Below, piece after piece: positions 29,521-31,418 of a DNA stretch of 64,000 nt. This stretch comes from Eledone cirrhosa (taxonomy: Eukaryota): the NCBI GenBank assembly GCA_964016885.1, contig OZ024761.1, positions 21,142,001 through 21,206,000 on the forward strand, written 5' to 3'. The position numbers were made by a program, and so were the translations under genes. Within the stretch, counting starts at the first letter, position 1, and each line of letters begins with the position of its first letter. The notes beneath the pieces were generated by a model. That model ran no database searches, had not been told where the DNA came from, and saw nothing but the letters and a program-made list of their open reading frames with translations.

Positions 29521-30996
29521 GTAAATAAATATATATATATATATATACATAAATATATACACATATATATATATACACACATATATATATATATACACAC
29601 ACACATATGTATATATATATATATATACACACACATATGTATATATATACATACATTCACATATATGCATACATTCATACACGTGTATATTTATATACAT
29701 ACATGCATACATACACATGCATATATATACATACATACATATATATATTTACTTAAATGTTATATACAAACACATTTCCCCAAAAGCTTTCAACACATTG
29801 AAGATTTTCTGGATGAAGACACAAAACAAACCCAAACAAACCCCAAAACAAAGGAACCCAACCAAAACCACTGGAAATTCCATCAAGTTCTGTTTGTATT
29901 TTCTGTTGAAAGATTTTCTATAAATAAATATATTTTGGAACGTGTCTGTCCCTAAATGGAGTTATTTTTTTTGTCTCCTTTATCTGTTTTTTTTTTTTTT
30001 TTTTTTTTCCTCATTATTGAGCTGGTGTCTGGAACGTAACTTAACGAAGGTTCTTATGTAAAATTATGATGGAAGGTTTTTTTTTTGTTTTTTGGGGGTT
30101 TTTTTTTGTAAAATATAAATATAAAACACTTTAAAACAAGATCTTGCAAAATAGAAATATATACACACACACACACACATATTTATATACATATATATAT
30201 GCATGTGTGTATATACATATATGTGTGTGTGTATACATATATGTGTGTGTGTATATATACACACACACATATATATATATATATACATATACATGTGTGT
30301 GTGTGTGTGTATACATATATGTGTGTGTATATACACACACACACATATAATATATATATATATGGGTGTGTGTATATATATATATATCATCATCATCATC
30401 ACCGTTTTACGTCCGTTCTTCCACGCTAGCATGGGTTAGACCGGTTGTCCTGTTGTGGGCAGTGCCCAGTCGGCTGACCTTGTCTTGCTCATACAGGAAC
30501 TGATTCTGACTTGATTTCTACAGCTGGATGCCCTTCCTCACACCAACCTCATTTACAGTGAGTGCTGGGTGCTTTTTTACCGTGACCCCTCCCCTCCCAC
30601 TGCAAAGTGGGAGGGGAGGGGGGCATATTGTCTTTATGCTTCAGCGTTGGCTTGGTCCATATATATATACTAAAGGAGGTGTGGTAAGGAACCAGGTGGA
30701 CCATAACGCACCAAAGTACTCGATACTTAGGGTAGTAGAGTGGGTAATAGGAAAGGAGTCAGGACCCCAACGGCTGAGCTCTGACCTTTTCGATAGCTAG
30801 ATCCCATCTAGCTGTCAAATTGGCCGGAGCTCAGCCATTGGGGTCCTGACTCTTTTCCTATATATATAATCAATGAGTTATTTAATTTGTTGATTATTCA
30901 ACAAATTTAGTTTATAACAGATTAGAAGCACTCAACAGAATTTTTCTTCTGGAGTATAATATAAATAAATGAAAGCTATCTTTATAAAACAATATT

Positions 30997-31057
30997 TATT
31001 TTATTATATATATTTCAAGTGTAAGAAAATTTTGGTACGCTCTCATCAGATAAAATA
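30997..31057 (-). ncRNA. Type I hammerhead ribozyme motif, sense to EFCAB5, about 360 nt past the stop
   Basis: Minus strand: tattttat-CTGATGA-gagcgta...tacactt-GAAA-tatata-TA-ataaaata. Confidence 0.7.
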
Positions 31058-31183
31058 CAAAAGTTGGTTTACAGATAGTGACATATCCAAAAACAAGAAC
31101 TTATTGTTTTAAGTTCTATTTGAATAGAACTCACAACATTAAGTTCTTGTCTGAATATGTCACTATCTGTAAACCAACTTTTG

Positions 31184-31244
31184 TATTTTATCTGATGAGA
31201 GCATACCAAAATTTTGTTACCCTTGAAATATATATAATAAAATA
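31184..31244 (+). ncRNA. Type I hammerhead ribozyme motif (other arm of palindrome)
   Basis: tattttat-CTGATGA-gagcata...taccctt-GAAA-tatata-TA-ataaaata; weaker stem II. Confidence 0.62.
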
Positions 31245-31418
31245 AATATGGTTTTATAAAGATAGCTTCCATTTATTTATATTGTTGATATATATTAAAT
31301 TCATTGGAATTTTATTTTTATTATTATTTTTTATTTTTCCCTTAAACTGAGGAAATAAGTTTATAAAAACGAAACTTTAAACTTTAGTTAGATTCTTTGT
31401 CTTTTGGTGTCACTGCGG

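Follow-up and report, generated by a model that had tools for sequence, protein, structure and literature searches.

Insertions of Penelope-like elements (PLEs) characteristically contain an inverted 5'-truncated copy, and a tail of 30-40 bp is often found on one end only (Craig et al. 2021, PMC8557442, Fig. 2 legend). A curation guide to repeats describes the same combination of an inverted copy and a one-end tail (PMC8969392). According to the biochemical account of Frangieh et al. 2024 (PMC11167929), two internal RT start sites define the Penelope tail, and the targets are AT-rich. In that account, the Penelope hammerhead is protein-assisted and dispensable in vitro, and the part cited here gives no RNA-seq ends at the site for an anole element. 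Minimal hammerheads of metazoan PLEs have been described as pairs located 100-700 bp apart on opposite strands and having a palindromic helix III (Cervera and de la Pena 2014, PMC4209133). In the relevant portion of the same study, the G10.1-C11.1 pair is conserved, activity in vitro is low or none, the Schistosoma monomer that was assayed gave no cleavage, and a PLE-type minimal hammerhead requires a second copy of the same sense.

Penelope families are abundant in coleoids (PMC8967140). In the sections of Porath et al. (PMC5625713) considered here, octopus ranked first in predicted duplex fraction and was very strongly hyper-edited, was omitted from repeat annotation, and the question of which repeats supply its duplex was left open. 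In this study, we analysed a near-perfect palindrome located just behind the EFCAB5-like gene of Eledone cirrhosa, using a 64-kb stretch of genomic DNA (hereafter, the window). With a probability of about 0.85, we take this hairpin to be a short repeat present in interspersed copies, likely made up of two Penelope-like 3'-end stubs joined head to head, with a hammerhead that is predicted to be silent at this location.

Results

Architecture of the palindrome

The palindrome (element A) occupies positions 30958-31283 of the window. The repeat search produced ungapped arms 30958-31089 and 31152-31283 (132 nt, 95% complementary), and gapped alignment extended them to two arms of 163 nt around a centre at 31120/31121, with 151 of the 161 aligned positions identical. 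The minus-strand fold of 30940-31300 is a single hairpin of -208.1 kcal/mol (z -36.3), and none of 100 shuffles was equally stable. The inverted repeat reported in the initial annotation is therefore real and longer than the roughly 145 bp given there. The "nested inner hairpin" of the same annotation turned out not to be a separate module, being the apex of the palindrome (8 bp and a 4-nt loop).

Both arms read outward from the centre in the hammerhead sense. The long arm (30869-31120, minus strand) is a truncated element copy of about 250 nt carrying a hammerhead and a tail; it aligns end to end with 16639-16888 of the plus strand and 54020-53762 of the minus strand, and the depth in public sequencing runs begins at 30859-30872. 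The short arm (31121-31283, plus strand), identified by alignments and antisense to EFCAB5, is an inverted copy ending just short of the tail; public-run records passing its end carry on with tail-like letters. The tail itself (30869-30957, minus strand, about 89 nt) is one-sided and lies outside the palindrome. Alignments and a 12-mer search delineated its shared motif ACTCCAG..CTGTTGAGTGCT, with the 12-mer at 30938-30927. A TA run at the long end (30859-30868), seen both in the sequence and in public-run records, is common to the adjoining fold-back repeat 30669-30861 and is likely the insertion target. A comparison of the element A region with Rfam returned nothing at the gathering threshold and 18 sub-threshold matches, mostly to generic hairpin models and none to a hammerhead family. 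We rejected the reading of the hairpin as a microRNA precursor, as the sub-threshold matches are generic hairpin matches.

Relatives in the window and in public runs

Alignments and the hammerhead descriptor revealed two further loci in the window. Element B (16478-16888) is an inverted pair with arms of about 161 nt (156/160 identical) and a tail on the right; each arm contains a hammerhead, in which 10.1-11.1 is G-C and the palindrome is AUGCGCAU. Element C (53762-54020, minus strand), located inside an EFCAB5 intron, is a single arm with a hammerhead (CUGACGA) and a tail, ending in a TA run. The long arms of the three elements share 170-187 identities over 219-235 aligned positions. The 12-mer CTGTWGAGTGCT has three exact matches in the window, one per long arm, whereas 0.26 would be expected with up to one mismatch. 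The short arms of A and B have nearly coincident ends, a few bases apart and immediately ahead of ACTCCAG, and the long arms end 75-90 nt farther on, at TA-rich DNA. A has the tail on its left side (about 89 nt) and B on its right side (75-90 nt); C has one as well. The centres of A and B differ. Measured from the hammerhead core, the starts of all three loci lie 54-72 nt ahead of it and so fall within about 20 nt. The density of loci in the window, three in 64 kb, is equivalent to 47 per Mb (Poisson range 10-137).

Relatives were also found when four public DNA runs, comprising two contig sets from one sample (X1 and X2) and two RAD read sets, were mapped on 30850-31480 at 80% likeness. Matches at this threshold amounted to 5,222 of 16,285,364 contigs in X1 and 5,266 of 16,517,967 in X2, and to 26,542 of 12,467,656 and 29,639 of 12,785,554 RAD reads, most of which fit the AT-rich segment 31224-31289 alone; these counts are not copy numbers, and the organism sequenced may be a relative. 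Depth was confined to 30850-31311 and was zero at 31312-31480, and at 30859, 53 records in X1 and as many in X2 pass into (TA)n. Judged from these sequence comparisons, element A is a copy of an interspersed repeat and not a gene-specific device.

Among the 15 joints listed, seven link both arms across a shortened centre, as expected from other inverted copies with other truncation points; the support for each arm-to-arm joint is a single contig or a handful of reads, with a short side of 20-35 letters, and is individually weak. The commonest differences in the DNA runs X5 and X6 were A>G (22 and 26 places, respectively) and T>C (24 and 25 places). Such differences among DNA relatives would therefore mimic editing unless reads are uniquely mapped.

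A near-perfect palindrome of 326 nt with TA-rich flanks might also be a DNA transposon of the fold-back (MITE-like) type, mobile as one palindromic unit and carrying hammerhead motifs incidentally. No public-run record spans the whole locus; one contig covers the centre region at about 80%, as such a transposon would allow. Nevertheless, the 89 nt of homology beyond the palindrome occur next to one arm alone (the left one in A, the right one in B), C consists of one arm and its tail, A and B have different centres, and the flanks of element A showed no target duplication. We regard movement as an intact palindrome as quite improbable.

The common start of the three loci raises the question of the nature of the mobile unit. 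The elements could be copies of a SINE-like non-autonomous unit of about 260 nt with a fixed start, related to animal retrozymes, which would have its own transcription and borrow Penelope-type enzymes, the palindrome forming at insertion. Consistent with this possibility are the start positions of all three loci relative to the core, the similar letters with which A and C begin, and arms devoid of any coding remnant. In addition, non-LTR retrozymes have been argued, in a preprint, to come from PLE pLTRs (bioRxiv 10.64898/2026.07.22.740005). Conversely, the window has no head-to-tail units, the trait by which retrozymes are defined in the descriptions cited, and the public-run joints suggest varying centres. 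The clustering of starts within about 20 nt fits a short non-autonomous unit as well as it fits random truncation. We consider such a unit possible, if on balance unlikely; in any case, it is a sub-case of Penelope-type insertion and not a different mechanism.

Other repeats in the window

A second family of inverted pairs is represented by 30669-30862, 2262-2455, 25264-25431 and 41637-41770. Its members have a one-sided tail of about 80-90 nt and an end at a TA run, the centres vary among copies, and the three palindromes scanned have no hammerhead core. The copy at 30669-30862 abuts the long end of element A, and the tail of the family holds TYGAGTACT-like letters that resemble the tail motif of element A. 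This family possibly represents stubs of a hammerhead-less (Naiad-like) element. Two more short palindromes, 41780-41924 and 49378-49569 (84-85% arm identity), have no relatives in the window.

SINE-like repeats are abundant, including 30395-30640 and its copies 19995-20237, 63704-63886, 57928-58083, 34044-34223 and others. Rfam tRNA-like matches at 5843, 15264 and 58077, barely over threshold, are probably the heads of SINEs. Hammerhead-like motifs of another type, with a GAAACC-nnn-GGTA helix III, occur at 19608-19668 (minus strand), 25557-25624 and 36737-36806 (both plus strand). The one at 19661 satisfies the descriptor and has an 11-bp stem II; 25515-25657 and 36744-36839 are related.

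Hammerhead motifs and their predicted state

The descriptor and folding agree with the initial annotation in placing a minimal type I hammerhead motif at 30997-31057 of the minus strand. It comprises an 8-bp stem I, CUGAUGA at 31049, a stem II opening with G.U, GAAA, a palindromic AUAUAUAU helix III and an AUA triplet with H17 at 31005, so that the site is 31005/31004. What that annotation overlooked is the same motif in the right arm, on the plus strand (31184-31244), with the core at 31192, H17 at 31236, the site at 31236/31237 and a weaker stem II. Altogether, the type I descriptor found six motifs in the window and none in each of 200 block-shuffled windows. The core (C3 U4 G5 A6 G8 A9, G12 A13 A14, A15.1-U16.1 and H17) is intact in both arms of element A. 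At the G10.1-C11.1 position, B has the G-C pair, whereas C and the two arms of A have G.U. Stem I is formed by 8 A-U base pairs, the fourth position of stem II is mismatched in A, B and C, and helix III of element A is 2 bp long, with one sense copy of the motif per strand.

Could these motifs act at this locus? The second option of the initial annotation was a self-cleaving terminator downstream of EFCAB5, gated by the hairpin, and the intact core letters and AUA site of both arms, together with the gene-sense orientation of the left-arm motif, are compatible with it. The remaining properties speak against it: helix III is of the dimer type, a transcript of an inverted pair always contains a single sense copy, and G.U occupies 10.1-11.1. 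Energetically, the hammerhead fold of element A is predicted to be unfavourable both as a monomer lacking the other arm (+2.3 versus -7.6 kcal/mol for the best fold, a gap of about 10 kcal/mol) and as a dimer (-8.0 versus -17.8 kcal/mol), whereas for the dimer of element B it is within 1 kcal/mol of the optimum. As the annotation had correctly noted, in the EFCAB5 sense the antisense arm (31121-31283) precedes the hammerhead arm, and therefore the motif would be zipped up while emerging; in read-through RNA, 58 of its 61 bases are predicted to pair with the other arm (p>0.9). The low or absent in vitro activity of such motifs reported in PMC4209133 and the anole element without RNA ends at its site, as presented in PMC11167929, also argue against a terminator. 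The hammerhead of element A is predicted to be locked inside the hairpin, gated self-cleavage by it appears unlikely from these models, and a terminator function for EFCAB5 strikes us as highly improbable. The intact core letters of both motifs may nonetheless allow cleavage in trans or with protein help.

The EFCAB5 gene and its 3' end

The first exon of the host gene matches EF-hand calcium-binding domain protein 5-like entries (Octopus proteins, 62-63%; Gigantopelta EFCAB5-like, 43%). These identities by themselves point to an octopod, apparently other than the two species matched. In a tblastn comparison with the Octopus vulgaris protein (1230 residues), 15 segments together cover residues 3 to 1225, the last segment being 32198-32064, and a homologue search with the exon 38935-39189 gave no match. 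The coding part of the last exon (31419-32197, minus strand), in which the frame is fixed by splice phase and supported by homology, ends with a stop codon at 31421-31419. With the hairpin edge at 31283, the previously stated distance of 135 nt is correct.

The last exon contains, in frame, a 33-bp minisatellite of about 16 copies (31472-31995, minus strand), whose repeats of 11 protein letters add about 210 C-terminal residues compared to O. vulgaris. Tandem repeats at 32188-33480, 25850-27700 and 36740-38930 comprise an intronic minisatellite with a 52-bp unit and two microsatellite tracts, rich in TA and about 2 kb long. A second gene at 3752-6671 (plus strand), with exons encoding SH3 domains, is convergent with EFCAB5; its product may resemble a RIMS-binding protein.

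Three minus-strand AATAAA hexamers (31335-30, 31322-17 and 31316-11) lie in very AT-rich DNA at 31311-31335, in the interval between the stop codon and the hairpin, and are candidate EFCAB5 poly(A) signals. Further AATAAA hexamers on this strand are found at 31277-72, 31005-00 and 31000-30995; all three are part of the repeat itself, and one at the far end overlaps the hammerhead site. ATTAAA occurs at 30886. Signals both before the hairpin and at its far end, as noted in the initial annotation, are thus present. With the first cluster of three placed ahead of the hairpin, the mRNA may end at the hairpin edge, and, as far as sequence can tell, the EFCAB5 mRNA is likely to end at this cluster.

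A further possibility is that the insertion has been co-opted, such that an edited 3' UTR duplex regulates EFCAB5 under alternative polyadenylation. The proximity to the stop codon and the presence of AATAAA at 31005-30995 and of the downstream ATTAAA would permit such an arrangement, and there are precedents for the editing of such RNA: squid 3' UTR repeats are described as frequently edited in the relevant part of PMC9068888, and self-folding frog repeats as heavily edited in that of PMC5625713. However, with a density of about 47 loci per Mb, some gene end can be expected to have a copy nearby, three AATAAA hexamers stand ahead of the hairpin, the downstream hexamers arrive with the repeat, and the locus bears no sign of selection. 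We find co-option improbable. Under our model, probably nothing about element A has been selected for a role at EFCAB5, and the element is likely to be ordinary genomic debris and not a device that switches the gene.

Discussion

Based on the architecture of the elements, we propose that element A is likely a Penelope-type insertion. Both A and B have an inverted 5'-truncated copy joined at the 5' end, so that the outer ends are the 3' ends of the element, and both have a tail on one end only. The type I hammerhead with a palindromic helix III, another Penelope feature, is present, as are interspersed copies in large number at AT/TA-rich targets, seen as three loci in the window and in the public runs. 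A search within the window for an autonomous partner, in which the terminal repeat would be attached to an ORF with a telomerase-like RT and GIY-YIG, gave no RT or GIY-YIG Pfam match in 122 + 18 frames scanned (out of 368 frames of at least 60 aa, low-complexity ones being omitted). A scan with the hammerhead pattern returned 0 matches in viral contigs and 0 in metagenome contigs. The tail motif matched at 16 metagenome loci, where a hammerhead core was present upstream in 0/16, and these matches were taken as chance. The arm motifs had no match in the accessible part of the supplement of Craig et al.

The following series of events would account for the locus. A Penelope-type RT/endonuclease made elsewhere would have cut AT-rich DNA behind EFCAB5, and copying of the element RNA would have begun at either of two internal start sites, so that one end acquired a tail and the other did not. 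Both copies would have stopped early, and the joining of their 5' ends would have produced the palindrome. The hammerhead would be cargo from the pseudo-LTR of the parent, where it would act as a dimer or with protein help. RNA reading through from EFCAB5 would form a duplex of 160 bp burying the motif, and any editing by ADAR would be a side effect.

By analogy with edited repeats elsewhere, such read-through RNA would form a long duplex resembling those on which ADARs act, making incidental A-to-I editing plausible. The single locus, a repeat copy that landed behind a gene, matters little; its value is as a pointer to the sources of duplex. Eight short self-folding palindromes make up 2.3% of the window, and at least five of them come from two families having an inverted pair and a one-sided tail. 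It is tempting to speculate that octopod genomes contain tens of thousands or more self-folding Penelope-type stubs, belonging to several families with and without hammerheads and bearing long one-sided tails, and that these are a main source of the near-perfect dsRNA behind the exceptional hyper-editing of octopus, much like the Harbinger palindromes of frogs. Element A would then be edited upon EFCAB5 read-through. We put this idea forward as a conjecture that we ourselves think doubtful. Our literature search, conducted mostly outside subscription journals, returned no paper assigning octopus duplex RNA to Penelope stubs, and for the combination of hammerhead, octopus and Penelope it returned Craig et al. 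alone. The insertion architecture itself has already been published; no description of an octopus example turned up in the literature searched, which lay outside repeat databases and most subscription journals.

Several known systems resemble element A to different extents. Animal non-LTR retrozymes, as characterized in the portions of PMC7229834 and bioRxiv 10.64898/2026.07.22.740005 considered, are likewise short, non-coding, AT-rich, provided with a type I hammerhead and likely PLE-derived. However, retrozymes are head-to-tail arrays with two same-sense ribozymes, whereas element A is an inverted pair with one ribozyme motif per strand. We rejected retrozyme identity because the window has inverted or single copies alone and no head-to-tail units. 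With the palindromic Harbinger repeats of Xenopus, as presented in part of Porath et al. 2017 (PMC5625713), element A shares the property that one copy of the repeat is sufficient to form a tight duplex closed by a tiny loop. Those repeats are DNA transposon derivatives with demonstrated hyper-editing, while for element A editing is a plausible expectation.

The minimal hammerheads described in PMC4209133, to the extent considered here, are similar in their U-rich 5' side, CUGANGA and GAAA cores, palindromic helix III, NUH site and AU-rich 3' side, and the cores of element A, 143 nt apart, fall within the 100-700 bp that separate the opposite-strand pairs. Our motifs depart from them in the G.U at 10.1-11.1 of A and C, the lack of an extra base between 9 and 10.1, the 8-bp A-U stem I and the mismatch in stem II. 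Finally, compared to the PLE insertion units covered by the cited parts of PMC8557442 and PMC11167929, element A has neither an ORF nor a located autonomous partner, its tail is longer (75-90 nt versus 30-40 bp), and it is not assignable to a clade (Neptune, Poseidon, Nematis or Hydra). Nonetheless, it is with these units that element A has in common the head-to-head truncated copies, the one-end tail, the AT/TA targets and the hammerhead of the terminal repeat.
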